DNA of 59,544 bases, counting the filler, from Ionaspis alba (Eukaryota): assembly GCA_964255285.1 (NCBI GenBank). It is 4 parts of 4 records of this genome, joined end to end, with 100 filler letters (N's around TTAATTAATTAA, not from the genome) between each part and the next. Parts side by side here need not be neighbours in the genome. Positions count along the whole stretch, not along the records: positions 1 to 14,823 come from CAXUUL010000397.1; 3 more parts are not named here. The stretch is one strand, 5' to 3'. Shown here piece by piece: positions 1-44,753 of this stretch. Below the pieces are notes generated by a model that was not told where the DNA came from, ran no database searches, and saw only the letters and a list, made by a program, of their open reading frames with translations. Made by a program: the position numbers and the translations under genes. Each line of letters starts with the position of its first letter. Position 1 is the first letter of the stretch.

Positions 1-2
1 AG

Positions 3-170
3 AATGCGGATGTCAAGGTGCAGTTGAGACTGACGACGCTGAAAGAGACGAATGAAGGGTTTTGGACTCGGAGGGGCTTTCGGACTACGGTGGTGAAGAG
101 GTTGCCGGAGGGGACTTGGGGGAGTGAGAGTGGATTTTCTGTGTTAGAGATGGTTAAGGATTTGGTGTGA
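3..170 (+). CDS. 3' end of a probable GNAT-family acetyltransferase (5'-truncated at scaffold start)
   Basis: Frame from nt 3 reads NADVKVQLRLTTLKETNEGFWTRRGFRTTVVKRLPEGTWGSESGFSVLEMVKDLV-stop. The L-TT..E.N..FW.RRGF...P.G.WGS..GF....M.K pattern resembles the C-terminus of fungal GNATs. Absent from the ORF track because it lacks a start. Confidence 0.55.
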   Translation, partial: NADVKVQLRLTTLKETNEGFWTRRGFRTTVVKRLPEGTWGSESGFSVLEMVKDLV

Positions 171-590
171 TGAGGAGCTTGAGGACTGTGGATGTAGATG
201 CTGGGAAGATCGAAGGAATGAGACGGTCGGGTGCTGGACGATATATACGAGAAATGACGGATGAGAATCATGGATGATCGATGACACACATGAATGTATT
301 AGATTTGGAGTATGGATATCACTTTTGGACACTGGGATTGCGGAGGATGGAACTCAAGAGTGTTGGTCATGGATTTTGGTTCTGAGCCTGCCTGCTGGTG
401 AAGCATTGTGCACTGGCAGTACTTGCTCACTTTGGCTACAACGTTCACATAGATTTCGTCCTGGACATTGGAATGATGACCGAAGCTCTCTTCATTTTCA
501 TATAAAACGCTCACAGAAACAACTCCCTGGACGCCTTACGAACTTTATGCATAAATTGGAAGGCACAAAACATCAATATGCAACCGCTGC

Positions 591-2814
591 TCAAGCTTCA
601 CCACCTCCCATGAATTTCTGCCCTTTCACACTGACCCACTCCATGCATCCAGAGGCAACGAAGCCTAAGGCGCCACCCGCGGCGGCGACGTACTATGAGA
701 AGAAGACACGTCAGCACAGCTGAGTCATCAAGAGCGGCACAAGAGATAGGTGTGAGAATGTAGTGGGGTGTTCGATCAGGATTAGAATTTCAAAAGTGCA
801 TAGGAACACTTACAAAGGTGGTCGTGATAGCTTTGTTATAAGCTTCCAGTACAGGTTGCAAGATCTCCGGCTTCACAACTTGGCGGACGGCGCCCGCTCC
901 AGCTCGAATAATCAATTGAGCATCAACCCCGGGTATGTGAATCAACTCGTCTGACAAGCGAGAGACGAAGACATTCTGGGCTATGGCGAGGAAGAAAGCC
1001 CCACCGAAGAATTGGAAGAAGACAATGATGGAGGTGCCGGTGGATATTTTGCGGAGAGGAAGGACGGCTTGTACGGCGATGAGAGGCTAGGACATGTTAG
1101 AGAAAGTGATGATCTGTATGTTCTGGTGGGGTAGGACGAACCATTTGCAGAATAGAACCAATACCAGCTCCCGAAATGGCTTGATAGCCAATCCATGCAG
1201 CAGCACCTGAGTCGGTCTTAAATGTTGTGTACAAGCCCGCGCCGATCGAGGTCATTGCAGTGCCGAAAAGAAGCCAAGGATTGTAGTATCCGAGCTTGGT
1301 CACTGTAAAGGAAGGCAAATAAGTTCGTGTTCTTTCGAAGGAATGCATAGGGAGCGATGTGATCTTACCAAGAACGCCTGCAAACAAGGAGAAGAGAACG
1401 TTTCCAACCACCGAAGGGAAGTACATGATACCACTGTCTGTTGGGGTAGAGTTCTTAATCACCTGGAACCAGATTGGCAGATAGTACGTGACAAGCTGAA
1501 GACCGCCCATGGCCAAACAAGAAACGACAGCGCCGAAGAACACACTGCGTTGTGTGAAGACATCCGGTGGAATACTAGCTTCGTCCTTCTTGTACCACTG
1601 CCATGCACCGAAAAGCACCAATACACCAAAAGCGCCCAAGATCAGGCCGATGATCATGGCAGACTTCCATGCATGGAGGTTGCCCCCCCACTGTAAGGCG
1701 AGAAGAAGCATCACCACAGCTGGAGAAAAGAGGAAGAATCCAGGCAGGTCAAGGCGCTTGAGTTTGTCGATAATACTGACACGAGCGACTGCTTGAGCTG
1801 GGGGAAAGAAGAAGAAGAACAGAACGATGGCCGTCACAGCTCCACATGGCAGGTTGATATAGAAGCCTGTTGCGATTAGTCTAAGCTGCCAGGGTTCAAT
1901 GATATGAAGTTGTTCAACGTACACCATCGCCAGGACACATGTTGAGTCAAAGCACCACCAAGAACAGGTCCTACGATGTTTGCGACTCCGAACATAGAGG
2001 CAATGATACCGGTGTACACTGGAGTAGAGATCAGATCGACGTGCACCGGGTGATGGACAGAAGCTACTCACAAGGTCGAAGCCTCAGTGGGATGGAGTGA
2101 GCAATGATCACAAGCGCTCCCGAGAAGAGACCAGTGGCACCAAGGCCTGCAATTGCTCGACCGAGAATGAGGACAACAGAGGATGGTGCGGTTGCGCAGA
2201 CCAAGCTGCCGATCTCGAAGACAAAAAGGAAACATAGGTAGGCCCATTTTAGAGAGAAATGTTGGTAGATCTTGCCCGATAAGGGTTGGCATGCGCATCT
2301 GAAGAACGTCAATTTCATGACCTCCACGACACTGGATCGTGTAACTTACATGGTGATGAGGAACGAGCTTCCATACCACCCTACATCGTCAAGAGAGTTG
2401 AAGTTTGTCGTGATAGTGGGTATGGCCTATGATAAGCGTTAGATCAACCGCTCGATGCTGGCGACTCTGACTCTTTTGATATCTTACCGTGGCAAGAATG
2501 GCATTATCCTAGAACACTGTTAGAATCAACATAGTCAGAGATGGATGAGCAGTGCATACTAGAGCAACGAGTAGCACGGATATTGACAGCCCAAAGACAA
2601 TAATATAAAGCTTGAATCCGGAAAGATAGACTGTCGAATCCTCATCGTTCCTCGCAATGGGGATTTCGAGTAATGAATCTGGTCGATCCCGGACAGACGA
2701 GCTTCTTTCCAGTGAAGACATCCTGTAAACAGGCTCGTTCAAAGCAGTGGTAGAAATGTCTTCGTTTGGGATTTTGGGAAGGACAACGTCCTTCTCCTGC
2801 CATGGTAACTTCAT
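591..2814 (-). CDS. MFS efflux transporter, DHA2/14-TMS family (AflT/GliA/TOXA-like), multi-exon
   Basis: Spliced ORF with LLVAL|DNAILAT|AIP.IT..F, GRAIAGLGATGLFSG, SWRWCFYINLP, LDLPG, YYLPIWFQ, PLIAVQ and AYNKAITTTF motifs; GT-AG introns; stop TGA at 591-593. Confidence 0.93.
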
Positions 2815-3666
2815 CTTGTCGTGAGGATCTGTAGAAACTCGCTGAGGATAAAGACAGGAAGAGAAAACGAAAGAGAGAAGTATTGTAGGTCCTAGATCAC
2901 GATCTAGTCTTTTCGTGCAGATAGGACAATCAAAGAATGTTGACGTGATGACAGTTAAGATAGGAAGAGACGAAGGAGAAGAAGAAGACTACTGTAGCCA
3001 GAGCCCAGTAGATCTGATAGTCGATGACCACGAGGCATGCGGGTCCATGCCTGCTGTTTGACTCTCGATCATGCAACATCGCCACAGTCAGTGAGTGCAG
3101 GCGAATGAATAACCGAAGCTCTGGTTCCGGCCAGCCTTTCCTGCCTCTTTCATGACCTTTTTCTGGCTGTCAGCAAAGGGCTGCCACACCCTTTACCCCG
3201 TAGTAACCCTGTATGGTTGGTACTAGGCGGGCGGCACGCCATGCACCTCATCTCAGCTCGATCACGGTTGCAGGCTTTTCCAAGAAACGTCCATCTGCCT
3301 TTGCTTATCCGGTTCCGTCCAACGGGCCACTGAACATCCGTCGCGGCCCGTCCATAACGCCTGCCGCGCCCTAAATTACTTGGGCTATTTAGGCTGCAGT
3401 AGCCGGTGGAGCCTCCGTCTTACGATACAATACGATGTAAATTACGGTACTGTGTAATCCGGGGTCCAGCATGCATGTGCTCTACTAATATTATTGTTTC
3501 TTGGGCGGTCAGCATCCCCTCAGCCCTCCACTCGTCTGTATCTTCTCAGCTTCTGCACAGGAAAAAAGTTTCTTCTCATACTAAAATAATTGCTGTGCTT
3601 CGTGTATATCCGACACAGCTCCTCACATCATCTTCCCTTTCACTCAAGAATAGCAAAGCCACAGCC
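2815..3666. promoter_or_regulatory. Divergent (bidirectional) promoter region MFS/SDR
   Basis: Head-to-head ATGs at 2814(-) and 3667(+); several CGG/CCG triplets. Position-based inference only. Confidence 0.5.
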
Positions 3667-4731
3667 ATGGACTTCATCAAAGCTCAGCTCTCCAAAATAC
3701 CCGCCATCACTCCAGTGAACCTCTCGGCCTGCACCGTCCTCATCACAGGCTCTAACACTGGTCTGGGTCTGGAGGCCGCCCGTGAATTCCTACCCTCGAA
3801 ACCAAAACGGTTGATTCTAGCTGTCCGAAACATCGAGAAAGGCAATGAAGCCAAAAGGGAGCTCGACAAGTCCAAAGCTGCTTCAACCCAGATCGAAGTC
3901 CGAAAGTTGGATCAAGGCAGCTTTGCTTCAGTCTTGTCGTTTGCAAAAGGTTTAAAGGGTGACCGGGTGGACTTGGCAATTTTGAACGCCGGTGAGTTTC
4001 GACCGTGGTTGCCTGACCAATCCGTCGCGGGAACTTATTTTTGACGTCCGTTCTAACATGTTCTCCACCCACCAGGTGTGTGGAATACCGAATTCAAACC
4101 TACCGAAGATGGTTACGAGTCGGATCTTCAGATCAACACGCTTGCGCCAGCTCTCCTCTCGATCCTACTCCTTCCGAACCTCCGCGCTGCTTCCAAAGCT
4201 CCGACTGAGAACAATGCCCCCCGACCGCATCTTGTCTTCACGACCAGCGGTCTTCACGAAACAGCCAAGTTCCCCGAGCGCAAACTTCCAGAAGGCCAGG
4301 TTTTGGCCGCGCTGAACGACCCCAAGAAGTATACGAAGTCAGATCGCTATGCGACGACCAAGACCATCGGCCTCCTCTGGACTCGTGAGCTTGCGAGCAG
4401 AGTGCCAAGCTCCGAAGTGATCATCAACTCGTCATCTCCTGGCTTCTGCAGCACTGGCATCATGCGAAACACCTCCGGTATGATGGGCTATACTGTCAAG
4501 ATAGCCGAGAAGATGCTCGGAAGATCGCCTCAGGATGGAGCCAAATGCCTGGTCAATGCTGCTGTAGCACAAGGCCCAGAGACACATGGCAAATTCTTGA
4601 GTGAGTGCCAGATCAAGCCTGAGTCTGCTCTCGTCAGAGGCCCGGAGAGTAAGGAGCTCCAGGGTAAGATGTGGAGGGAGATTTCTGGTCTGCTTACCAA
4701 GCATGGGTTGGACTCGAAGGCTGTGCCATAA
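3667..4731 (+). CDS. Short-chain dehydrogenase/reductase (retinol-DH/WWOX-like)
   Basis: TGSNTGLG Rossmann motif, LNAG|V across intron 3992-4075, YATTK catalytic motif, SSPGFC.T. Confidence 0.92.
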
Positions 4732-5440
4732 ATTGGCTTTGCACAGTGATGGTCACGGTCTTTGACATTTAGTACTTTCGAGCTTGTATTTCAGCCAGCC
4801 TTTTCTAGTATGAGCCATCAGGCTTGAGGCTGGAGAAGCTGGGTTCGCAATGGGATTGAAAATCTAGTTACGTTGGATCAATTGCAATAGCCTCTATGAG
4901 AAACCATCGGGTAATCGCCTCAATCCCGCAACTTTTCTTTTTGAGTCCGTGACGTACGTAGCTTCACTAGATGAATTCCTCGATTGTAAGGCACCCATGC
5001 AGCCTATGCGCACGATCCTTCCGCCCCCATTTTCTCATAATCCTTTGTTCTGTTACAGAAATCTTCGCGTGGCCTCCTAGGCCGGAGAAGGGTTCGGCTA
5101 CACCAACATCACAGGCGATTTGCACCATGCACACATCTTCCTTCGGACCCACTTAGCTCTTCGCTCGGCTGGAGGGTTTTGGTCTAGATGCAGAATCATA
5201 ATTCAGGATCAGACAATACAAAGTCCACACTAAAAGTTCGTTGCTGTGCCCACTAGGTACAATCGTAGGGGCCGTTAGCCAAAATCCTCCGCATAATCAA
5301 ATATTTACAGATATCCCAAATATGGAAAATGTGGCGCCAGAAAACGTGTGGTACCATATCCCAACCAGTTCCCACCCCCTGATAATGATCACCCAGCCAA
5401 TCCCGAGACCGTTTGTATACACGCCTGTCTACCATGGAGC

Positions 5441-6942
5441 CTAGACCCTATCTTCTACTCCATAATGCCTATCCGACCCGTAGTGTCTATCCACGTTGTA
5501 GTGCCTCCCTTCTGACACATCAGTCCTTGCCCACGCGGACCCTGGATGCACATTATCTCCAACTCTGGCATTGACATAGTCTTCCGGAGGGGTGTCTGGT
5601 GGCAACTGATGTAATGGTAGTACCATGTCATCCACGGTCGAAAGGCCTGTCATTTTGGATTTGTACCCAGAATCTTCCGATGGGTACTTGTGAGCGGAGA
5701 ACTTTGCACCGTGGGTCTTGCTGTTGCCGTTCGTTTTTCTCGTGCCTGCCGAGCCGCCATTGGAATTGAGGTCCAGTAGCGATTTGAAAGCATTGATCGA
5801 GCCGGCGCTCTTTTCCATTGCGAGCTTGAAAGCGGGCCGAATTGATGGCATGCTTGCGACAATGAGACCAATGTTCTGTTCGAGCCTGATGGTTGTGTTA
5901 GCCAGACTCTCTAATACTTCCATATGAAACAGAAAAGGGGTCATTACACTGTCGCGATCTCCAGTGGAGCAAAAGCATCTAGTAGAGATGAATGTTAGTT
6001 GGATTCTCCGGGTGCAGCGACGGTAGCTGAGGAAAACTCACAAGAAGAGTCCCTGAAGTCTGTGGCTATTCCGTATAGGTACATCCGGGCGACACAGCAT
6101 CCTGTGGTACTGAAGACGAATGAGTGGTGAAGACAAAGTTACTTGGCTGCAGATATCACTTACAATAGGCCTAAGCCGATAAGACCACATATGGCAATTT
6201 TCTGAGATCGACTGATTTTGATGTTCCATAGCACAATGACAGGGAGGGTACAGCAGATCAGATCAGTGATGATGGAGAAGCCTTGCCCACTTGTCAATGT
6301 CGTTCTGGTAGAGCCCGAACGATTGGTAGCACTCACCACCTTGGATCCAAGCAAAGGAGTAAAGGACGTCGTGGCTAAAGCATTGCCCTGGCACCGAGAA
6401 ATCCCAAAAGGACACGATGGGCCGACATTGAGCAAGAAGCTCGATGAAACAAGCTCCATTGACCACAATCAAAGCACCGATCAAGCCATACATGAAGCGA
6501 ATCAAGCGCCTGTTATTTGCGATTCTGATAATCAACAAACAGATAGATATCTTGGTAAGAGTGGTCGAGAAGATGAGGGGCATTTGTGCCAAAGTACTCC
6601 ATTTTTGCTGCTCGGTCGCTCGTTGTCGATCTAGGTAGTAGGCGTGTCTTCCGCCGCCATTTGCCACGTGCAACAGCACAAATGAAGTGTTTATCGCAGC
6701 GAATGCCTTTCACAGAGTCGTCAACACGAGTTGGATTGGCAATAGAGAAGCAAAAGTCTCACAGTAGCTGCGATTATTGTATAGTCATCCCAACCGACCT
6801 GGCGGACGAGGAAGCGCCGACTGTACATACGAAGAACGAGGGCAAGGACGACGAGTGTGAAAGATACAATGGTGACATCGCGCAAAGCGGGACCTCTGTT
6901 CTGATCACCTCCTACGGGAGGAGGACCCATAGGGTACGACAT
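5441..6942 (-). CDS. Pth11-like (non-CFEM) 7-TM integral membrane protein, multi-exon
   Basis: GDQNRGP, LRMYSR...GWDDY, GGGRH, TKISICL, AQCRPIVSFWD, SIITDLICCTLP, EQNIGLIVASMPSIRP motifs typical of the fungal Pth11/rhodopsin-like family, followed by a disordered C-tail. Confidence 0.88.
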
Positions 6943-7833
6943 TGCGATCTATCTCTAGTAAACAATAGAAATCTAGCAATGCTCCAGCTCGGATCAATAA
7001 GAGTGACACGAAGGACGCAGGTCGGAGAATTTGACAGCAGAAGTGCGGTGCGGCAGCAGGTTATCAACCAGTCCAGATCCAATGAACAAATGGCGGAAAT
7101 CCTGCTGCATGGCCATCGAAGATCCAACATGGGATTATGGCCCCCACCTTCCAGCTCTGATACAAGACTCCGCCACCGCTTGGGCTGAGAAGTGGGTGCT
7201 TGGCGAGTCATCTGGACGATGTTCTGTCCATTCATAGACAAGCATTAGAGTTCTGACGAAAGCATTTGTCAGGCAAAAGAAGGCACAGCAACTGGTGCAT
7301 CCGAGTTGATGAGAGTCCGACCGAGGTGTGGACTGAATATTCAGACTATCCGGCATATCTGCAAGCCAGAGTTGAGTGAGGTGCAGTCGTGCCGCTGACC
7401 GGTGCTTGATGCCTCCGGGAAATGAAATCGCCGAATTTCACTGAGGCTGTGATTGAAGCGCAAAGCCCCGGCCCGTTCACTAATCCTGGCGAGGACGAGG
7501 GTGTGCTGAACGAGGAGGGATAAGCTTAAATGCAAAACATGAACAGGGGGTCGAAGCACGCGGCACTGTCGGCGACACGTGGGAAATATGCTGATCTCTG
7601 CCCCATGGATCGGACTTCCCATGATTTCGGCTCGTTTGCAGCATCTGCACAGTGCTGGGATCCTGCCACTTGCATGATAAGAATTATGAAAGAGACTTCC
7701 ATATTCCACTTGTAATTAGCTTACTGGCGACTAATTTCTGCATGTCAGCAATAGGGCATAACACTACCACATGGTTTCTCCCTAGTTGTGTTGGAAACTC
7801 TTACCCTCCTCATCACACAATCATTATCCTACA
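6943..7833. promoter_or_regulatory. Divergent promoter region Pth11-like/GST
   Basis: Head-to-head ATGs at 6942(-) and 7834(+). Confidence 0.5.
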
Positions 7834-8799
7834 ATGGCAGGCACTGAAACCAGTAACGCTGGTCCATGGCGAGGTGTACTGGGTTCCAACACCTTTCCCG
7901 CCGAGCCGAACCGCTATCATCTCTACGTTGGCCTCTTCTGCCCGTTTGCACATAGGGTTCTCTTGGCTTGGCAGATGAAGGGGCTCCAGGATATCCTTCT
8001 GATGTCAATTGTGAGGCCATACCCGAAGGGCGAGGAAGGCTGGCGATTCCCCAAAGATGATTCCGAATACCCTGGAAGTACAGTTGATCACCTATTTCAC
8101 TCCGCCTTTCTTCGTGAGGTCTACTTCAAGTCACCGCCCTCTTATGGCGAGTACTCGGGCAGATACTCAGTGCCGGTTCTATGGGACAAGCAGACGAATC
8201 AGATTGTGAATAACGAATCTGAAGATATCATGCGACAGCTGAACAGCGCATTCAATGACCTTTTACCAGAAGGTCCAACGCGCTCGCTCAATCTCTACCC
8301 AGAAGAGCTCAAGGACGACATCGATTCGATCAACACCTGGCTTCCCCGCGACTTGAACGCAGGTGTATATATGGCTGGATTTGCTCCTACTCAGGAAGGT
8401 TACGAGAAAGGATGTCGAAACCTCTTCGCGACACTTGATAAACTTGAGGCGCTTCTCAAATCGCACGACGCACCTTATATTCTAAACCAGCATCTAACTG
8501 AGCTGGATCTGAAAGCCTACGCCACATTGGTGCGCTTCGACACCATCTATGTGCAGCACTTCAAGCTGAACATTGGCACCATCCGACACAATTTCCCATG
8601 CCTGCACCGTTACCTGAAGAATCTCTATTGGAACGTGCCTGGTTTCAAAGAAACGACGAACTTCATCCACATCAAAGAAGGCTACAGCAAGTGCCATGGG
8701 GATATCAATCCGAAAGGAATCACTCCGATTGGGCCTGTGCCAGATGTTGAGTTTTGGACTGCCGAGGATGAAGCTTGGAAGCAAAAGCGGTCGAGTTAA
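7834..8799 (+). CDS. Glutathionyl-hydroquinone reductase / Xi(omega-like)-class glutathione transferase (ECM4/YqjG family), intronless
   Basis: RYHLYVGLFCPFAHR active site (CPWAHR-like), YSVPVLWDK, IVNNESEDI, LVRFD.IY.QHFK.N, TTNF.HIK..Y, INPKGITPIGP. Confidence 0.92.
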   Translation: MAGTETSNAGPWRGVLGSNTFPAEPNRYHLYVGLFCPFAHRVLLAWQMKGLQDILLMSIVRPYPKGEEGWRFPKDDSEYPGSTVDHLFHSAFLREVYFKSPPSYGEYSGRYSVPVLWDKQTNQIVNNESEDIMRQLNSAFNDLLPEGPTRSLNLYPEELKDDIDSINTWLPRDLNAGVYMAGFAPTQEGYEKGCRNLFATLDKLEALLKSHDAPYILNQHLTELDLKAYATLVRFDTIYVQHFKLNIGTIRHNFPCLHRYLKNLYWNVPGFKETTNFIHIKEGYSKCHGDINPKGITPIGPVPDVEFWTAEDEAWKQKRSS

Positions 8800-8979
8800 G
8801 CATGACATTGGTAGAATTGATAGCAATAGAATAGAAACTATCTATTTGTACTATCCTAACAACATAAGATCACTCAGAATCCATAACGCCATCAGTCCTC
8901 ATCTATATAAAACTTTTCTCCGTTGCTCCAGCAATGAAATCGCTTGACACCAGAACGTGCATACTTTCCCGGGCTTGGA

Positions 8980-9842
8980 TCAGAGCTTCTTGCCACCCTT
9001 TCCCTTGTTCTCCAAACCCTCCACATACTTGAAGACAAAGACATAGGCGAATTCCGCCAGCTCAGCTGCAACGAACAGGAAAGTGGCAATTGGCGTGCGG
9101 ACATAGGCGTAGTCAGCTGGGTAGTTGACGTATCGGTACTGGAAGACGGCGATGGCCACGAGCGTGCCCACGAATCGAAGGAACCTATTGTAAAAAGATT
9201 GAGTTAGTAATCGTGACTCCGAGACATACTGGAGTAGGGGACTGTTCAGAAACATGACTAACCATATGGTCATAGAATGTCCCCTGGTGTGCCCTCTTGA
9301 TAGAAGATGTGCAATGCTGCTATAGCTGATCATGGTCTGGCAGACAAATCCACCCCAGAACCCAGCTTCACAGAGGTCTGTGAACGTCTTCGCTACGGCA
9401 AAATGGCAGGCCAACATGAATATGAGGCCAATTGCCGTGATGGAGTACATGTTTTTGGCAACAAGTGGGGAATGTGACCATTCCCTTGGCCCAAAGGCCA
9501 CAGTTGTGTAAAGAATGTAGATGTCAATCACCAAGAAAGGAAAGAAAGCCACGAATTCGGCGGTTGCGGGAGGATATACGAGGCCGTAAATCGTCTCCCA
9601 TCCGATGTTTGCCCATCTGAAGCATGGAGTTAGATCTTGGGGATCAAATAAATTGCAGTCTGCACAACTCACAGTGCAAACAAGGGCATGCCGTAGGATT
9701 TGTCTCGATATGCCTGTACGATATAGAGGACATAGGCAGAACCCCATAGAACACCGCAGAAGAGAGTGAGGCCATCTTGAATCCAGAGATAGCTCTCCGG
9801 AGGATTGTTGGCGGCGTCGATGGGGGAAAGAGGAAGATGCAT
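8980..9842 (-). CDS. Pyr4/PaxB(IdtB)-family integral membrane terpene cyclase
   Basis: Three exons (introns 9617-9672 and 9185-9262) give ...RDKSYGMPLFALWANIGWETIY...RGHTRGHSMTIWFLRFVGT...AAELAEFAY. SYGMP, N..WE and RGHS..IW..R..GT are family hallmarks; about 7 hydrophobic segments. Confidence 0.9.
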
Positions 9843-10564
9843 TATGAAGGACAGGTGGAAATTATCTCCGAAGATACCGATCAATTGGGTCGATCAGAAC
9901 GAGGTGGGGAATATACACTGGATGCAATATTCGACTTTAATAGAGGGGAAGACACGAGGGAAAGATCCAGCAGAGAGGGAGGGGCCCACACAAAATGAAA
10001 AATTGATATGAATCCAAGACCCAGCGTAAGGGTCCGATGCACACCCAGCTGCATCGCCCACGAGGTCGACAGGCAATGTAACCTCAAAATGACGAGAGAT
10101 TAGAAAATTACAGCAATCAGCATGCACATGTAATATACGAAACCGGGGACTCCATACTGCTTACGCGTGTCAGGCTAGCTGACGGCACACTATTGAGGCT
10201 CGTTCCCAAAACAAGAAACAGGCCGGCAAAAGCGACCGTGCCAGCGGGATTGCCTGCATCGCCAAATGGCATGCGACGTGGATGCAACGTGGTCGGGCAA
10301 GGATCATTCCGATATACCGGGACTCCCCGGCGGGACTTTTGGGCCGGTCAGCCAAGCCATTCCCTTCCGGGCATCCAACAACACCATAGCGCAAATTCCG
10401 TTGGGCTATTGAAATTGTGCATTTGTTTGATTGCTAAACTAGCGCTAAGTAACTAACTGAAATACGAGGAAGAGAGCATGGAAAACCAAAGAGATAGCCC
10501 CCAAAGTAACATGTGAATCCTTTCATCCTTCCGGAGACTCCATCCGCTGACTATCCTTGCTGCT

Positions 10565-11800
10565 CTAACGACCATCGCTGGAATCCTTGAGAGTCATAGT
10601 CTCCTGGCGGCCCCAAATCGCTGCAAATTGCGGGACCTGACGCTTCAGAGAATCCAGCTCCTTCATGCACACATCCTTGACCTCCTTGGCCTGGAGTACT
10701 GCCAATGCAGCCTGATGCCGCTGGTCCAGCAACGCTGGGTCCACCTCTCCCTTTTCGCCCAGTGCCTGCTGGACCACCACCCTCTCAGGTAGCGAAGAGT
10801 GAAGAGCAACGATGACTGGAAAGGAGTATTCGCCGTTGACGAGATCTTCGGCAAGCGCGCCTTTAGCCTTGATCACATCCGAGGAGTAGACATTCTTGCA
10901 ATCGTTCTGCAGATGGCAGTACCAACTATCCACTTCGGTTAGCGACCAGACATCCAATGAGAAGTGCTTCGTAGCGAGAACTTACCCAACGGCGCTCATG
11001 ACTTCGTCTTGATCGTGGTTTCCGAAGACCAACTGCCCCACAAGTCTGAATAGCGCTCCGGTCTTGAGGTAGGCAGAGTGTCTGTAGAGCTTGAGGGCCG
11101 ATTCTTGGTCTGGCATCTGCTGAAACCCATCTCGACGCCAAACAAGAGAGATGTCTTGACCTGCGAGTTCATGTATCAGCATCCATAGACAGATGTAGCC
11201 ATACAGGAATTACTGACCTTCGTGGATTTCCGTCAGATTTTGGAGAATGAATGGGATCATGGCCGGTCTTTGCCTTCGGATGTTCTCAATGACCTCAAAA
11301 ATGCGGAGATAAGCCCGGTTGATCGTCTCGCTGGATCCATAGACTTTGTGTGCTGCGAGCTTTCCTTTTCTGAGAACGCTGTTATCGGCAACATCGTCCA
11401 CCAAGATGGCGCCGAAGTGCACAGCATCCATGATATCCAGTATCAGCTGGTATTGAATGGGATCCTGGGTCTTGAGCTGGGAGTTGAGAACATTGACGAG
11501 CGTGGTGAAGTGGTGTTTGCCGTAGACTTGTAGGATGTATTCGTAAGGACAGTCACAGTCGCCCCGGGCGACCTCCACTGCCAACTGCTCCTTCTCTGAG
11601 CTAGTACGTTCGCGGACAGCTTTGCTGCTGCTCTTCGAAATAGCGGATCCCCATCTCCACGAAAAGCTCAACTTGGGGTTCAGCATGAACGTGGGGAGGG
11701 TGATACCGAGTACGGCCAGGGCGGCGGCGATGGGTACGAGAACAATAGATGGAATAAGATGTACGGAAGTAAACACCGATGAAGCAACGGGGAAGATCAT
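10565..11800 (-). CDS. PaxC/LtmC(IdtC)-type indole prenyltransferase (isoprenyl diphosphate synthase fold) with N-terminal hydrophobic anchor
   Basis: Three exons (introns 11161-11217 and 10926-10985). Motifs CPYEY...[20 protein letters not shown]...[62 protein letters not shown] match IdtC rather than ordinary GGPP synthases. Confidence 0.92.
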
Positions 11801-12819
11801 GATAGCGATGGGAGTCTTGTGGATTCTATGAAGAATAAACCTCTGGATACACGACTTTGTCTTGGTACAACGATTTTGAGCTATCGATAAACGACAAAGG
11901 TTCAACAGATATTATATAGAAAAATGACTATCCACATCAGGCTTACTCTTCCAGCTTGACCAACACGGCTTCTCGGAAACGGAAAAAGGCCCAAGCTGCT
12001 ACTACTGAATCCCCCAGGTCTTATCACACTGTTGCAACGGTTTCGTCAGATATTGTCTAGGCTGTTCAGAGTCATCTGGAGGAGGCGAGGCAGCCATATC
12101 GACGGTGCCTAGACGCCCCCAAAAATGATTCCTTGGCCAGGGGTAAAGAGTAATATTTTGAGCCGTCTCAGTCTGTCCCGCACGCGAGGCTCTGGGATGG
12201 ATGGGTGGAGGCTGATGGTGTGATTATCATTGCCACGAGGAATGTCAGCCAGTCGACCAATACAATCTGACCATTCTTCCTCCATCGTGTTGGTGCCTTT
12301 GCAAAAATAGTGAACGAAGGCCAGGGGAGGGGAGAAGTTGTGGTCAGATCGTGGTCTAGCTGTGTAACGCATGGCAGCTTACAACCATACTAGCCTCTGA
12401 ATCCCTCACCGACAAGCGCCGAATTGATTACAGAACGCAGCCAGCCTTCTTACGCGATCCCATCCCGTCCCCATCAACGGAGGATGCTCCAGCCCACCAA
12501 GTCACATTGGTTGCAGGCATTGTTTGCAGGCCACTGTTGGTTATCTCAATAATGGCTGCATATGATTTGGCTAGCTGTAACCAGCTGCTGACGTCGATAA
12601 GGGCTAAGTTTTGGAATTGGTAAGATAGTACGACCCTGGCCTGGCTGTGCCGAGTCATCTTTTTTTGCTTGCCATGTGCTATCATGCAGGAAGAATTTTA
12701 GTATTATTGTGCGCTGTATCTCCGGGGTTGAGGGAAATTGGAGAAGCCGAAGAAAGATTAGGGAAATCTTGTTTGCGAAACAAAAATAATTGTTGTGATT
12801 CTTTGTCTGAAGACTCAAG
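11801..12819. promoter_or_regulatory. Divergent promoter region IdtC-like/FMO
   Basis: Head-to-head ATGs at 11800(-) and 12820(+). Confidence 0.5.
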
Positions 12820-14823
12820 ATGACTCGTGATAATGTTGCTGAACGGGGTGATACAAGGAGGAATAAAGATGTTCTGGTTATTGGAGCAGGTGAGTCTTGA
12901 TATGGGCTCTTCGTTGGCACAATATCTCTCTAACAACGTCAAGGTCTTCATGGCTTAGTGACAGCCAAAGCTTTGCTCCACGACTCCAATGACTTTTTTG
13001 ATTCCGTCACGATATATGAGAAGAACAACCGCCTCGGAGGCGTCTGGTCTGAAGACCGTATCTACGAAGGCTTGACGACCAACTCTCCTCTGCTCACCTA
13101 CGAAATCCCCGAATTCCCCTATCCCGAGAAGCTTCGATCCGCCGGCGGCCATGTCGCAGCTCAAGATGTCAATCGATACTTCCATGCCTATGCGGAACAA
13201 TTCGGTATTTCAAAGCACGTACAATATCAGACTCTCGTCGAAGCCCTGGAGTGGGAACCAGAGTCTTCAGCGTGGGTCGTGCAGGGCAAAACTCCACGGG
13301 GAGGCTTTCAGAGACATTTTGGCTACATAGTTGTATGTGTGGGTCTGTACCATACTGGTCTCATCCCTCTGGCAGGGTCCCAAACCTCAAGTTATGCCGG
13401 GAACATCTGGCATTCTTCTGAGATGGGTAACAACGACGTGAAGAATACCCTCGCGAACTCTCAGGAGGTGATAGTATCAGGCGCTGGGAAATCTGCCCTT
13501 GATATCTCGACTCTACTGGCGCAGGGGAAGTGGACAAAGCCCAACTGTGATCCTCCGAATGTGACCTTGGTCTACAGGAGACCGCATTGGCTCTCCCCAC
13601 GGAAAATTGTACGCGGAACTGTAGCGTTTGAGAAGCTGCTATTCTCCCGTTTTGTCGTCAGTGCCCTACCACCTTTCTCATGATCGTCCTGCGCTGATGC
13701 CCGTGATTCTTTACAGTCTGCATGGCTACCCTTCGTCCGACATCCCGATGCTTTCCATCGATTGATCGCAGACACATGGTTCGGCAGATGGTCCACGAAC
13801 CAGATCTTCGATGTCATTGCGGATGACTTTGTCAAGTCTCTCAATCAGCAAGATTTACCACAAACTATCCCTAAGCATTCTTTGGCAGTGGCTCTATCCG
13901 GAGCTTTGCACGTGGAGCCTCCAGGGTTTATTGATTGTGTACGTGACGGGCGGATCAAGATCGTTGAAGGCAGCATCGTAGACCTCGAAGGAAAGGTCAT
14001 GAATGTCAAAGGAATTGAAGGAAGTTCAATCACTGTTGAAGCAGACAATATTTTGATGGCCACGGGCTACAAGCTGGTAAGATGCTAGATAATCCGGGTA
14101 TTTTCGTATCTGTGCTTAATGCTTACTCCCCGCTCCAGGCTCTGCCTTTCTTCTCGGACACGACACTTCGAGACTTGGGCCTCCTCAGACCCGAAGAAAA
14201 GATCTCAGACAACACGGATCTGCCCTACATCAGACTCTATCGCGTGATCGCTCCCCCGAGCACAGTCAATCCGTCTGCCAAAGGACCCTATCGCAATATC
14301 GCCTTCAATGGCTTTGCTTATTCCCTTCTTAACCCCACAGTGGCTCATGTTACTGCCAACTGGATATGTGACTACTTCGCCGGGGTCATCGCTAGTCCGG
14401 ATGCAACGCACGTTGAACAAGGTAAGAGTTTATTATCGGAATACTGAGGACCTCGAGCTCGCTAACGATAATTGCAGAAATCAACGATTTTCATGCATGG
14501 CAAGCCAAGTCCTTCGGCCCCCACGGCGCCAAAGGGGTCCATATTGGCCCACATGCCACCTTGTACAGCGATGTGTTACTTGCAGACATGGGTTTACAGT
14601 CCGGTCACGTCCAGGGGAATGTGCTGAATCCTCTTCGATTTTTTTGGGAATGGTTTCGGCCAATGTACCCCAGTGTTTACTCTGGTGTGGCTGCTGATCG
14701 CAGGATTCGAGGTAATGACGAAATCAAGATGTTGAATATGGATGGTTGGGATAGTACCACATTATTGGCGGCCGTGTTTGTTTCCGTGCTATTAGCGATA
14801 CTATTGGGATATTTGTACCTAGG
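12820..14823 (+). CDS. Class B flavin-containing monooxygenase (FMO-like) with C-terminal transmembrane segment; stop codon lost at scaffold end
   Basis: Exons 12820-12889, 12944-13656, 13717-14076, 14139-14421, 14478-14823. VLVIGAG|LHG FAD motif, EK...LGGVW, YAGNIWHSSE (FxGxxxHSxxY-like fingerprint), SGAGKSALD NADPH motif, DNILMATGY, terminal TTLLAAVFVSVLLAILLGYLYL. Confidence 0.9.
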
Positions 14824-14923
14824 NNNNNNNNNNNNNNNNNNNNNNNNNNNNNNNNNNNNNNNNNNNNTTAATTAATTAANNNNNNNNNNNNNNNNNNNNN
14901 NNNNNNNNNNNNNNNNNNNNNNN
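14824..14923. other. Artificial scaffold-joining spacer N44-TTAATTAATTAA-N44
   Basis: Exactly 100 nt with a six-frame-stop 12-mer at 14868-14879; identical to the two other spacers. Confidence 0.97.
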
Positions 14924-15306
14924 CGTAGACCGGACTTGCTACTGGCGCATACGCTCACTGATAGACCAAAGATAGAAATTGGAGTCAGAGCAGGCAACAT
15001 GAACTTGAACAGAGGAAAAGAGTAGTCACATAGTCAAGGCAAAGCAATTCATTGGTCGTAGGATTGTTCTCCAGATCGTAAAGTATCTGTGTATGCAACG
15101 ACACGTATTAGGGTATTCATGAGCGGAAGCAAGCAAAACGCATGAAACTTGTGAGATTGCGTAGCAGGTTTCCAAGATATCTTTGGTGTTACAGCTGAAT
15201 TCTCTATCAGCCCCTAAAGCTAGTATCACAAATCTTAGAAACTACACCCAAAGACCATATCGCCTTGAATATGCAGAATCGAACGCAGTAACCATTACCG
15301 GATCAT

Positions 15307-16347
15307 CTAAACCAGCTCCGACGTAACATTTGAGAATTCGCCTTTCTCGAGCTTCGTCTTCCAGAATATCGGATTCGTATCCTATCATCGACATTAGTAC
15401 AGCAACCAGACTTGGGAAGACAATGCCAAAGCTCACATTGAAACCATGCTTCACCCATCCATCCTCTTTCACGTGGTAGAGGTTGATAAACCCTCCAGAG
15501 TAGGCATCTCTGTGCGTAGCAGCAAGAATACTTCTTCGGCCCAACTCTAATGCAGCCTCCTCGGAAAGATCGTAGTGATATTCTGCATCCAATACACCAT
15601 AGGCGAACGTTTGTCCAGATCCAACACAGAAGAGGTTGCCCGCTAATCTCGTCCCGTCGGAGTCGATGTAGTAGAGCGCCGGACCCTCTTGTGGAGTCAC
15701 TCCTGCGCACATGGTTCCCATGCTCAATCCCATTCCTTTGTATGAGTAGACAAGGTTCGATAGGATCTTAGAGGCCGCCGCGACTGATATCCGGCGCTTA
15801 TGCCTCAACTCGTGTAACCGACATTGCATTCCGAGGTAAGCGAGCCAGTATTGACAGTCCTATCACAGGATATTATCAGCACGGCAAAATGAGGCCGAAG
15901 CAGGGTCAAAGCATCCTACCGCCGCTCCTCCTGCCATGGTTCCCAATAGGCAGTTATTGATTTCGATCACTTTCTTGACTGTCTGACTTGCTATCCAGTT
16001 TCCTGCAGTGGCTCTCGAGTCCGTAGCAACTATAATTCCTCCTTGGAACCGGAATGCCAACGTGGTAGTGCCATGAGCGAGCTTTATGGGACAATTTGGG
16101 TTGGCATGGTCATCTGTAGTGGCTCTGAGAAAGGCGGAAGGCTAGAGTAATAGGTCAGTATTTTTGTACGAGAGCATCTTGAGTTCTGCGATTGGGGTGA
16201 AGTTGAACTAACGCTGGCCAGTGGAGGTAAAGCAAACTTCAAAGAAAGAGGAGGCGTTGCCTGCGATAGCTCTTGTTGCTCATCCCAGGAGTATCCTTCA
16301 TTCTGGAAAGCAGGCCGACTATATTGGGTGACGAGGGAGTTCATCAT
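15307..16347 (-). CDS. PRE2: 20S proteasome subunit beta5 (chymotrypsin-like)
   Basis: Propeptide then [62 protein letters not shown]; last exon [28 protein letters not shown]. Confidence 0.97.
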
Positions 16348-16790
16348 GGAAGGTACAGGTTCGAAGGAGTGACGAGGGCTGGAAGAAAGATTAAGAAGGA
16401 GATGAACTTCTTGGATTCAAAGGATGGTGAGAAGGCACAGTGATTTGATAGAGCTACAAGACGAAGCCTTCGCCAGGTAGCTTCGAGGTGACGCGCCAAC
16501 ACCACAAGGCTGAGAATAAAGCTTACCTAATTCCCGTTAGCGTAGTCCAGTTCGCAATGATGGCGAGAATGATCTTGAGCTTAGTCGTGGACTGTAGTTC
16601 ACTCTTGTCTAGCTCAGTCTTCCACATTCACGATAGACTACTCTATCTTCCAAATACCTCAATACTGATCACTCTACTTACACTCCTTCTAAATTACATT
16701 TGAAGGTTTCTCACAACATCACCAGGTTGACAGGCTGCGCCGTCCCGTATCCAACTCCATATCTTCTCCACGGTTGGACTCTGCACCACG

Positions 16791-18445
16791 ATGCCAGTAT
16801 CAGTGGCGCTGAATACACCGCTCGCTGAACAATTGAGCAATGTCGTACAACCAAAGCTCGTGGAGGTTGGGTGGAGCACTGGTGGCTTGGACGACTCTGC
16901 ACTCGCGGAATACATCATCCTGATGCTCGTGAATGGCAAGACTCAGGACCAAATCGCCTCGGAGTTATCACACGACTTGCTCAATCTCGGTCCAGATGAC
17001 TCTGGAGCAACAGATTTTGCTCGGTGGCTCTTCGAACAAGTAGAGACTCTGAGCAACACCGCATCGGATCATGTACCTGTCGCTCCACAAGCTCAACAGC
17101 CAGAAAATTCGGATCAAAATTCACGAAGAGAACGCAAGCAGTCGAGCGGATCAGGTAGTCAGGATGCAGATATGGGCGAAGCTATGGAAGTCGTGCAGGA
17201 TGGTGTCATGTAAGTATTATGTGCCGACGTGCAAATGATCACAGCGGGCTTATAAATTCTAGTCCAACCGGGCCGAAGTCAATGCGGAACGGAGGTCGCC
17301 CGGCAAACAGAAGAATGATGGGGCAGCTGTCGAAAGCTATGGATCGATCTCAAGACTCAGTACTTCATCGCGTACGGCCTCAGCAGGGTACCGAGCGCAT
17401 CAATATGCACAACAGACAACCACCGAAGGGCCCACGCGGAGATCTATCCCGAGGGAGAATGCCGAATGGCGGGATACCTTCAGGTCCTGCCAACGGAGGT
17501 CCCATGAATAGGGGTCCAGCTGCTGCCATGACGCAGATGACCGCTCAGCAGCAGATGCAATTGCTGGCGATGTACGAACAACAGGCTCGAATCATGTCAG
17601 AGATACTGGGACCACAAGGACAGCAGATGTTTATGCCTGGAATGAATGTTCCTGCGGTCAACCCAGCTTTCCGTAACGGCGTTCCAAACCAGCCTCAGCA
17701 ACAGGGCCGATCGTTATTCGAGCGCACCGAGGTACGACCCCAACGACCGAACCTCAACGGCAACAATCGACGACCGCAACAAAATGGTAATCGGGTCCAC
17801 ACCACTGTCCAAACTGACACGGACATGGGGAACAACGACGTAACCTCCTCTATGGAAGTCGAGAGCTCGCAAGACGCTTCCACAAAACCCCCCTCAGAGA
17901 CTATGTGCAAGTTCAATCTCAAATGCACAAAAGCGGACTGCCCATTCGCCCACCAGTCTCCCGCTGCGCCACCAGGAACAACCATCGATTTCAGTGACCA
18001 CTGTCCCTTTGGTGCTGCTTGTCAGAATAGGAAATGTGTTGCAAGTCATCCATCACCGGGGCAAAAGCAAACGCATCAGTCCGAACAAGACTGCAAGTTC
18101 TTCCCAAACTGCACCAATCCCAAATGTCCATTTCGACATCCCACTATGCCAATGTGTCGGGATGGCGCCGATTGCAAGCGTGAAGGCTGCAAATTCACGC
18201 ATGTCAAGACCAAATGCAAGTTCAATCCCTGTTTGAATCCAAGCTGTCCCTACAAGCATGAAGATGGGCAGAAGAGGGGCGCGTTCACCGATAAGGTCTG
18301 GATTGCTGAAGGTAGTCAAGAGAGGGAGCATGTTAGTGAAAGGAAGTTCGTGGCTGGGGCGGGAGGAGACGAGGAGCTTATCGTGCCAGAGGCACAGGGT
18401 ATGGGCGGTAGTCAATCGAGTATGGGAGCGGAGGTTGTGACATGA
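16791..18445 (+). CDS. NAB2: Nuclear polyadenylated RNA-binding protein Nab2 (PWI-like N-terminus, tandem CCCH zinc fingers)
   Basis: VQPKLVEVGWS...LAEYIILMLVNGK N-terminus; repeated C..CPF.H CCCH fingers; EHVSERKF; intron 17210-17262. Confidence 0.88.
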
Positions 18446-29745: not shown

Positions 29746-29845
29746 NNNNNNNNNNNNNNNNNNNNNNNNNNNNNNNNNNNNNNNNNNNNTTAATTAATTA
29801 ANNNNNNNNNNNNNNNNNNNNNNNNNNNNNNNNNNNNNNNNNNNN
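29746..29845. other. Artificial scaffold-joining spacer N44-TTAATTAATTAA-N44
   Basis: 12-mer at 29790-29801 flanked by 44 N on each side; genes on both sides are cut. Confidence 0.97.
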
Positions 29846-32600: not shown

Positions 32601-32700
32601 NNNNNNNNNNNNNNNNNNNNNNNNNNNNNNNNNNNNNNNNNNNNNNNNNNNNNNNNNNNNNNNNNNNNNNNNNNNNNNNNNNNNNNNNNNNNNNNNNNNN
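32601..32700. other. Intra-scaffold assembly gap (100 N, no spacer 12-mer)
   Basis: Plain run of 100 N. Confidence 0.95.
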
Positions 32701-44653: not shown

Positions 44654-44753
44654 NNNNNNNNNNNNNNNNNNNNNNNNNNNNNNNNNNNNNNNNNNNNTTA
44701 ATTAATTAANNNNNNNNNNNNNNNNNNNNNNNNNNNNNNNNNNNNNNNNNNNN
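44654..44753. other. Artificial scaffold-joining spacer N44-TTAATTAATTAA-N44
   Basis: 12-mer at 44698-44709 flanked by 44 N on each side. Confidence 0.97.

Follow-up and report, generated by a model that had tools for sequence, protein, structure and literature searches.

A class B flavin monooxygenase linked to an indole prenyltransferase and a Pyr4-family cyclase in Ionaspis alba belongs to a conserved group of putative fungal indole-terpenoid clusters without IdtM

In the standard scheme, fungal indole terpenoids need a prenyltransferase (IdtC), an epoxidase (IdtM) and a membrane terpene cyclase (IdtB), a rule that the gene cassette described here appears to break. The PaxM/IdtM epoxidases are class A enzymes with a single Rossmann fold, DG and GD motifs, and the PF01494 domain. 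Class B flavin monooxygenases (FMOs) oxygenate their substrates by way of a C4a-hydroperoxyflavin. The canonical core (PaxC/PaxM/PaxB, equivalent to IdtC/IdtM/IdtB) occurs in the PAX, EST1/EST2 and DES clusters (PMC9913125), and also in a second cluster of the genome studied here. Every IdtB characterised starts from an epoxide, epoxy-geranylgeranylindole (PMC9913125); the same source contradicts the idea that the aflavinine and anominine cyclases skip epoxidation. Cyclases of another type are described in the accessible part of PMC6173783. There, DmtA1 protonates a plain, unepoxidised alkene and requires an extra aspartate, Asp94 (the D94A mutation abolishes activity), the epoxide-opening enzymes XiaE and XiaH are given as having no Asp94 equivalent, and MacJ is said to carry a similar Asp96. 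According to the accessible text of PMC6173783 and PMC12891896, the pathways of DmtA1 (drimentines), MacJ (macrophorins) and MfmH need no epoxidase.

The window analysed in the current study is a stretch of 59,544 nucleotides from Ionaspis alba, made up of four contigs, each about 14.8 kb long, with three identical linkers between them (nt 14824–14923, 29746–29845 and 44654–44753), and taken from a fragmented assembly (18.3 Mb, 1,282 contigs). Since the linkers join unrelated contigs, gene adjacencies across them are artificial, and the proteasome-subunit gene to the right of nt 14923 is not a neighbour of the FMO. The next contig carries this proteasome beta subunit gene (nt 15242–16416, an NCBIfam match) and, recognised by eye, a zinc-finger-repeat protein (nt 16731–18445); plain 100-N gaps are found at nt 32601 and 54162 of the window. 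The FMO and its neighbours are on the first contig, CAXUUL010000397.1 (C397), and are listed in Table 1.

Table 1. Features of contig C397 and of the second, canonical cluster of the same genome (window coordinates unless a contig is named)
Feature	Position	Strand	Remarks
MFS/TRI12-type efflux transporter	600..2822 (ends approximate)	-	orthologues in related loci
Short-chain dehydrogenase (SDR)	3667..4731	+	orthologues 47–65% identical in related loci
Fungal rhodopsin-domain membrane protein	5441..6900 (ends approximate)	-	PF20684 on 6266–6709; membership uncertain
Glutathione S-transferase-like gene (GST), 321 aa	7834..8799	+	not seen in related loci; membership uncertain
Pyr4/IdtB-family membrane terpene cyclase, 242 aa	8980..9842	-	PF25129, E 6.8e-49
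Cyclase Asp88 codon	9523..9525	-	counted from exon model
PaxC/IdtC-like indole prenyltransferase, 372 aa	10565..11800	-	introns 11217–11161, 10985–10926
Divergent intergenic region, 1,019 bp	11801..12819	.	presumed shared promoter
Class B flavin monooxygenase (FMO), at least 590 aa	12820..14823	+	5 exons; 3' end cut by contig end
Artificial contig-joining linker	14824..14923	.	N44-TTAATTAATTAA-N44; non-biological
Canonical indole-diterpene cluster	G000:C32:930-17230 (L032–L034)		P450, P450-like, idtC, idtB, class A idtM, P450, O-methyltransferase

The FMO exons (nt 12820–12889, 12944–13656, 13717–14076, 14139–14421 and 14478–14823) are separated by four GT-AG introns. The spliced reading frame of 590 codons has no internal stops and lacks a stop codon, nt 14823 being the final base of the contig. 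As the orthologue at metagenome locus L036 aligns up to residue 590, the gene is probably short of only a few codons. Contigs of three public runs were aligned to nt 1–14823 (two of the three gave matches), and none extended the sequence beyond nt 14823; the terminal 424 bases of C397 match that contig alone. In one run, X1, alternative letters at about one third of the depth in nt 60–620, 4849–4901 and 14406–14473 show that the sample contains another allele or another strain.

The encoded protein has an FAD motif, GAGLHG, at residues 22–27 (interrupted by intron 1) and an NADPH motif, GAGKSA, at 203–208, a variant of GxGxxA. These two dinucleotide-binding motifs in one chain, both conserved across the FMO clade, had been reported in the earlier note together with ATGY (at 376) and a C-terminal membrane helix, and all were found, the last as a hydrophobic segment at residues 565–590 (19-residue Kyte-Doolittle mean up to 2.56). 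Exon 2 matches PF00743 above the profile cut-off (E 1.4e-12). The fingerprint consensus of class B FMOs is FxGxxxHxxx(Y/F). The sequence YAGNIWHSSE(M) at residues 174–184, previously read as this fingerprint, is present but degenerate, with G and H kept, Y replacing the first F and M the last residue; in the Pleosporales orthologues only the H is retained. A predicted model of the orthologue P0001 (62% identical on exon 2, 59% overall; pLDDT 90) finds ancestral FMOs and DiatB as its best structural matches (Foldseek E of about 1e-27, TM by target 0.74–0.82 for the best ten matches), and in both structural-relative comparisons of the family Baeyer-Villiger monooxygenases (BVMOs) rank below FMOs. 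Asn70 aligns with the active-site Asn beside the flavin of ancestral FMO3-6 (6se3), and all but one of the 15 rows of the FMO clade have it. The exception, a Tyr, is in Agyrium (P0140, MCJ1314394.1), a short protein of 402 aa that may be degenerate or mis-modelled.

Known class B FMOs (ancestral mammalian FMO2, FMO5 and FMO3-6, DiatB, and the bacterial mFMO/Tmm) share with the window protein the two dinucleotide motifs, ATGY, the active-site Asn, the overall fold and the C-terminal helix. They differ from it in having only 16–23% identity and in the fingerprint, and the window protein belongs to a separate fungal clade without a solved structure; in the FMO tree all 13 orthologue rows form one clade (SH-aLRT 98) against 32 outer rows. 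A search of the ESM Atlas returned generic family names alone. Two other identities were considered and rejected. Type I BVMOs are marked by FxGxxxHxxxW(P/D) and by the Asp closing GxWxxxxYPGxxxD, where the window protein has Met in place of Trp and Asn in place of Asp. A class A IdtM would carry a GADG motif, which is absent; the best blastp alignment to the IdtM of the second cluster has E 2.3, and PF01494 has zero matches on C397. On its PF00743 match, its two motifs and the FMO-like fold predicted for its orthologue, the protein is assigned to the class B flavoprotein monooxygenases, as first proposed; by sequence, both IdtM and type I BVMO are rejected as identities.

The start codons of the prenyltransferase (nt 11800, minus strand) and the FMO face each other head-to-head across 1,019 bp. 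This agrees with the divergent arrangement of about 1 kb described earlier, while the shared promoter claimed with it is presumed from the spacing. The FARM region of the prenyltransferase reads HFGAILVDD (about nt 11422–11396), and the second motif is QND. HFGAILVDD is seen in the FMO-linked prenyltransferase clade (10 of the 20 sequences shown), whereas the IdtCs of the second cluster and of Hypocreales read H(F/L)(C/A)LIL(V/I)DD at this site; it is a possible diagnostic motif of the FMO-linked clade. These residues differ between the clades without fixing chain length, and as a guide to farnesyl versus geranylgeranyl they were uninformative. No GGPP synthase gene was found on C397 or near the second cluster. 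Among solved structures the prenyltransferase has GGPP-synthase-type matches alone, and the cyclase has none at E<=1. The cyclase gene has introns at nt 9672–9617 and 9262–9185, the second of which (78 bases) is in frame and free of stops, so that naive ORF calls read through it.

Ten named fungi were found to carry an orthologue of the FMO, and in seven a prenyltransferase or cyclase gene is adjacent to it or shares its contig. FMO and prenyltransferase have consecutive accessions in five of them: Mycoleptodiscus (UUG60172/UUG60173), Lophiotrema (KAF2108455/456), Amniculicola (KAF1996431/432), Lindgomyces (KAF2462743/742) and Lentithecium (KAF2685266/265), the last with the cyclase next (264). 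The Trematosphaeria FMO is two accessions from the cyclase, and in Agyrium the FMO and prenyltransferase are probably on one contig, judging by equal contig size. The Lentithecium cluster is listed as three genes only, mid-scaffold, in the accessible part of the PMC11109268 supplement. For Geoglossum and Trichoglossum no FMO linkage was found and the searches returned no prenyltransferase; the same part of that supplement lists their Pyr4 loci without PaxC.

Metagenome loci with FMO relatives numbered 29, comprising 12 close orthologues and 17 distant ones (23–35% identity), and the distant loci gave zero prenyltransferase or cyclase matches. The close loci represent three lineages (nine loci 94–100% alike, two 92% alike, one alone). 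A prenyltransferase is upstream of the FMO in ten of these 12, the other two having no upstream DNA, and a cyclase is present in seven, with two more stopping short of its position. At L036 the prenyltransferase shares the strand of the FMO and sits 4 kb upstream of it, and no cyclase occurs in 16 kb. Directly downstream of the FMO, nine of the 12 have an SDR orthologous to that of the window, followed in eight by an orthologue of the window MFS transporter; these two genes, which the earlier note had overlooked, belong to the cluster. Six close loci, all of one lineage, span 10 kb downstream and hold the SDR, the MFS gene, in five cases a P450, and no IdtM. In the related lineage of L039 (17700–21650) a rhodopsin-like fragment (by eye, with no Pfam match) and a P450 come after the MFS gene, whereas C397 carries a rhodopsin-domain gene but no P450. 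In a tree of 32 prenyltransferases, all six rows marked as FMO-linked fall within one 16-row clade (98/96), separate from the IdtCs of the second cluster and of Hypocreales; the other ten rows of this clade are unmarked for FMO linkage, and Agyrium among them is probably linked.

The genomic co-occurrence with idtC and idtB that had been suggested as a check was observed. With its class B FMO, prenyltransferase and Pyr4 cyclase, the window cluster is one of a conserved subfamily of fungal indole-terpenoid clusters that lack IdtM, have these three genes as their core and often include an SDR and MFS transporter. It is extremely unlikely that the FMO is a bystander or detoxification gene, or that a true idtM lies just past the contig end. 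The contig does end within the last codons of the FMO, and the GST and MFS genes suggest detoxification, but against this stand the linkage in seven of ten named fungi and ten of 12 close loci, the 10 kb without IdtM downstream of the FMO in six loci, and the detection of only one IdtM-like gene in the assembly.

That gene is part of the canonical cluster on contig C32, where idtC is divergent from idtB, the class A idtM is next, and one intact idtM is present. Three genes there are P450-like, two by Pfam and a third as read from the sequence, and a Cirrosporium protein has 66% identity to the IdtC. The window cluster shares clustered idtC and idtB with the canonical core, but has the class B FMO, a conserved SDR and MFS transporter, and a prenyltransferase of the separate HFGAILVDD clade (52% identical to the C32 IdtC). 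Its cyclase is 33% identical to the C32 IdtB and has Asp88 where the latter has Asn. Without a clustered IdtM, it falls outside the canonical idt type. The earlier note had placed the FMO where an IdtM is expected; this has no positional basis, since the C32 idtC is divergent from idtB and not from idtM. It had also missed both the C32 cluster with its true IdtM and the truncation of the FMO by the contig end.

Its statement that no IdtM is clustered with the FMO was borne out. The C32 IdtM used as a query found nothing at E<=1 on C397 or in any of the 12 close metagenome loci, while the same query detects class A relatives of 22–32% identity elsewhere in the source genome. Pfam analysis of 11 ORFs flanking L039, L036 and L045 (among 29 analysed, chosen from 67 listed) gave P450 and MFS matches and none of class A; one further L036 flanking ORF had no Pfam match. 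The genome has 15 PF01494 matches, of which only that in C32 is IdtM-like, and two exon searches for a second idtM in this fragmented assembly returned C32 alone. The C32 IdtM could nevertheless act in trans, a counterpoint to the reading preferred below. An ordinary epoxide-derived core would then be made with the borrowed epoxidase, leaving the FMO to late tailoring, including Baeyer-Villiger oxidation of an SDR-made ketone. The intact C32 gene, the existence of unclustered IdtBs (PMC9913125) and the conserved SDR next to the FMO are consistent with this arrangement, which we nonetheless consider very unlikely, as distant fungi conserve the cassette as a whole with no IdtM in it, the cyclase has Asp88, and the FMO has neither the fingerprint nor the Asp of BVMOs.

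Since the characterised IdtBs use an epoxide, the absence of a clustered IdtM needs explaining, whether by replacement with the FMO, by an IdtM in trans or by a cyclase that requires no epoxide. Residues of the window cyclase were compared with DmtA1, for which the reference was a Streptomyces youssoufiensis cyclase found by the motif of the quoted positions (ten of ten checked positions match), from another strain than that in the accessible text of PMC6173783. The two proteins are 28% identical. DmtA1 W29, Y33, N56, W59, E60, D94 and Y217 align with W33, Y37, N60, W63, E64, D88 and Y222 of the window cyclase, D214 is represented by Glu219, and E133 aligned to no fungal residue. In all three alignment modes D94 falls on Asp in four of four FMO-linked cyclases (Asp88 of the window and three others), whereas the C32 cyclase, which is linked to an IdtM, has Asn there, a contrast with a single epoxide-type fungal control and, in the L039 and C32 cyclase models, approximate junction residues. 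Two further cyclases (P0121 and P0122), outside known cluster context, also have Asp at this position.

Because Asp88 aligns with DmtA1 Asp94, epoxide-free cyclisation is favoured, which would leave the FMO free for another job; by this comparison it is probably no substitute for IdtM. From the alignment to DmtA1 only, we infer that the window cluster would combine an IdtC core with acid cyclisation of the DmtA1/MacJ type. The substrates of DmtA1, MacJ and MfmH are diketopiperazines or polyketide-type rings, whereas that predicted for the window cluster is a plain prenyl-indole.

The enzyme had previously been offered as either a convergent epoxidase or an indole oxidase. The second fits better, and the first is weakened because Asp88 means that no epoxide may be needed. 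In the first, the FMO would epoxidise the prenyl chain in place of IdtM, with the cyclase opening the epoxide as usual; PsoF is a class B-type alkene epoxidase. A three-gene cassette with exactly one oxygenase, as in Lentithecium, mirrors the C, M and B genes, the FMO is membrane-anchored, and all characterised IdtBs use epoxides (PMC9913125). Such a replacement is still unlikely given the DmtA1-type Asp of the cyclase, the lack of sequence likeness between the FMO and the C32 IdtM, and the structure of mycoleptodiscin, a product without terpene oxygen from a genus with the orthologous gene pair.

The best explanation, to which we assign a probability of roughly 0.55, is an epoxide-free cyclisation of a prenyl-indole in which the FMO would oxidise the indole, possibly towards drimanyl-indoles of the mycoleptodiscin type. 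As the family would suggest, the prenyltransferase would make a 3-prenylindole (farnesyl or geranylgeranyl). Glu64 and Asp88 of the cyclase, judging from the residue alignment, would protonate the terminal alkene as in DmtA1/MacJ, with no epoxide. The membrane-anchored FMO, with its NADPH-stabilised C4a-hydroperoxyflavin, would then oxidise the indole, which is electron-rich, either hydroxylating the ring or oxygenating the nitrogen. A mycoleptodiscin-like drimanyl-indole would be the likeliest product type, in which a benzene-ring hydroxyl would activate the ring for the final closure and then lead to the quinone. The SDR would adjust the redox state, the MFS transporter would export the product, and the GST may detoxify.

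Mycoleptodiscin A has an ortho-quinone on its indole, with the junctions at C3 and C4, a structure that requires ring oxidation and no epoxide. Mycoleptodiscin A is described in the accessible parts of PMC11575645 and PMC12282579 as a drimane meroterpenoid, synthesised from drimenol by hydroarylation; because this drimenol is unoxygenated, the drimane is taken to be without epoxide-derived oxygen. It is an alkaloid of Mycoleptodiscus sp. F0194. Mycoleptodiscus sp. DH-2022a has a 'flavin-binding monooxygenase' (UUG60172.1) orthologous to the window FMO (49%) and a 'prenyl transferase' (UUG60173.1) orthologous to the window prenyltransferase (56%), each in the same clade as its window counterpart. 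With F0194 as the producer strain, this deposit appears to be tied to mycoleptodiscin by genus name alone, and the genus was polyphyletic according to the accessible text of PMC6712544.

A more specific form of the preferred reading is put forward tentatively. The three-gene cassette would be old and widespread and would use no epoxide, and the FMO would hydroxylate the benzene ring and so steer an acid-type IdtB into a Friedel-Crafts closure, giving mycoleptodiscin-like indole-quinones. The range of the cassette would then take in Dothideomycetes, Geoglossomycetes-like fungi and Agyrium, and probably Botrytis Bcpax1 and a chytrid. Alternatively, oxidation at indole C2/C3 or N1 could be an obligatory trigger (through a 3-hydroxyindolenine or N-oxide, on which the alkene or terpene cation would next act), leading to an indoline or carbazole-like scaffold and no benzene-ring quinone. 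The nearest folds are indeed N-oxygenating FMOs, there is a crystal structure of a bacterial FMO with indole (2xvj), an imine would be a possible substrate for reduction by the conserved SDR, and indole N-hydroxylases occur in indole-terpenoid pathways (XiaK, of class A, in the accessible part of PMC5613243). A C3-prenylated indole is, however, unlike free indole, no fungal precedent was found in the literature searched, and a cyclase that supplies a strong acid itself can do without an oxidative trigger, all of which makes this route decidedly unlikely.

The benzene-ring route, if true, would bring a new cyclisation logic to IdtBs and a reaction new to class B FMOs, and the FMO cassette would be a candidate pathway to mycoleptodiscin; mycoleptodiscin B is reported as cytotoxic at 0.4–0.8 uM in the accessible text of PMC8746379. 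The Asp88 position could serve as a marker, a single residue in size, that tells Pyr4 cyclases of different mechanism apart, with one negative control so far. No description of the FMO cassette or of mycoleptodiscin biosynthesis was found in the literature searched, which covered few subscription journals, and Mycoleptodiscus does not occur in FunBGCs (about 700 curated clusters), which matched these clusters weakly (13–16) to other pathways. The stand-alone Mycoleptodiscus deposit carries functional names, which suggests that the cluster may already be under study; the value of the present observation would be lower if it has been published.

The FMO cassette also allows the class of product to be predicted for several orphan Pyr4/PaxC clusters. 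Bcpax1 of Botrytis cinerea, for which no product was detected according to the accessible part of PMC11173184, is probably one of them. FMO fragments (the P0146 and P0041 clusters) are on contigs equal in size (40,160 and 11,907) to those of the Bcpax1 members, which suggests that this orphan cluster is of the FMO-linked type. The deepest-branching orthologue of the FMO (P0141, KAJ3038911.1; 38%) is from the chytrid Rhizophlyctis rosea, and a Pyr4+PaxC cluster in a Rhizophlyctis genome is reported in the accessible part of PMC11109268.
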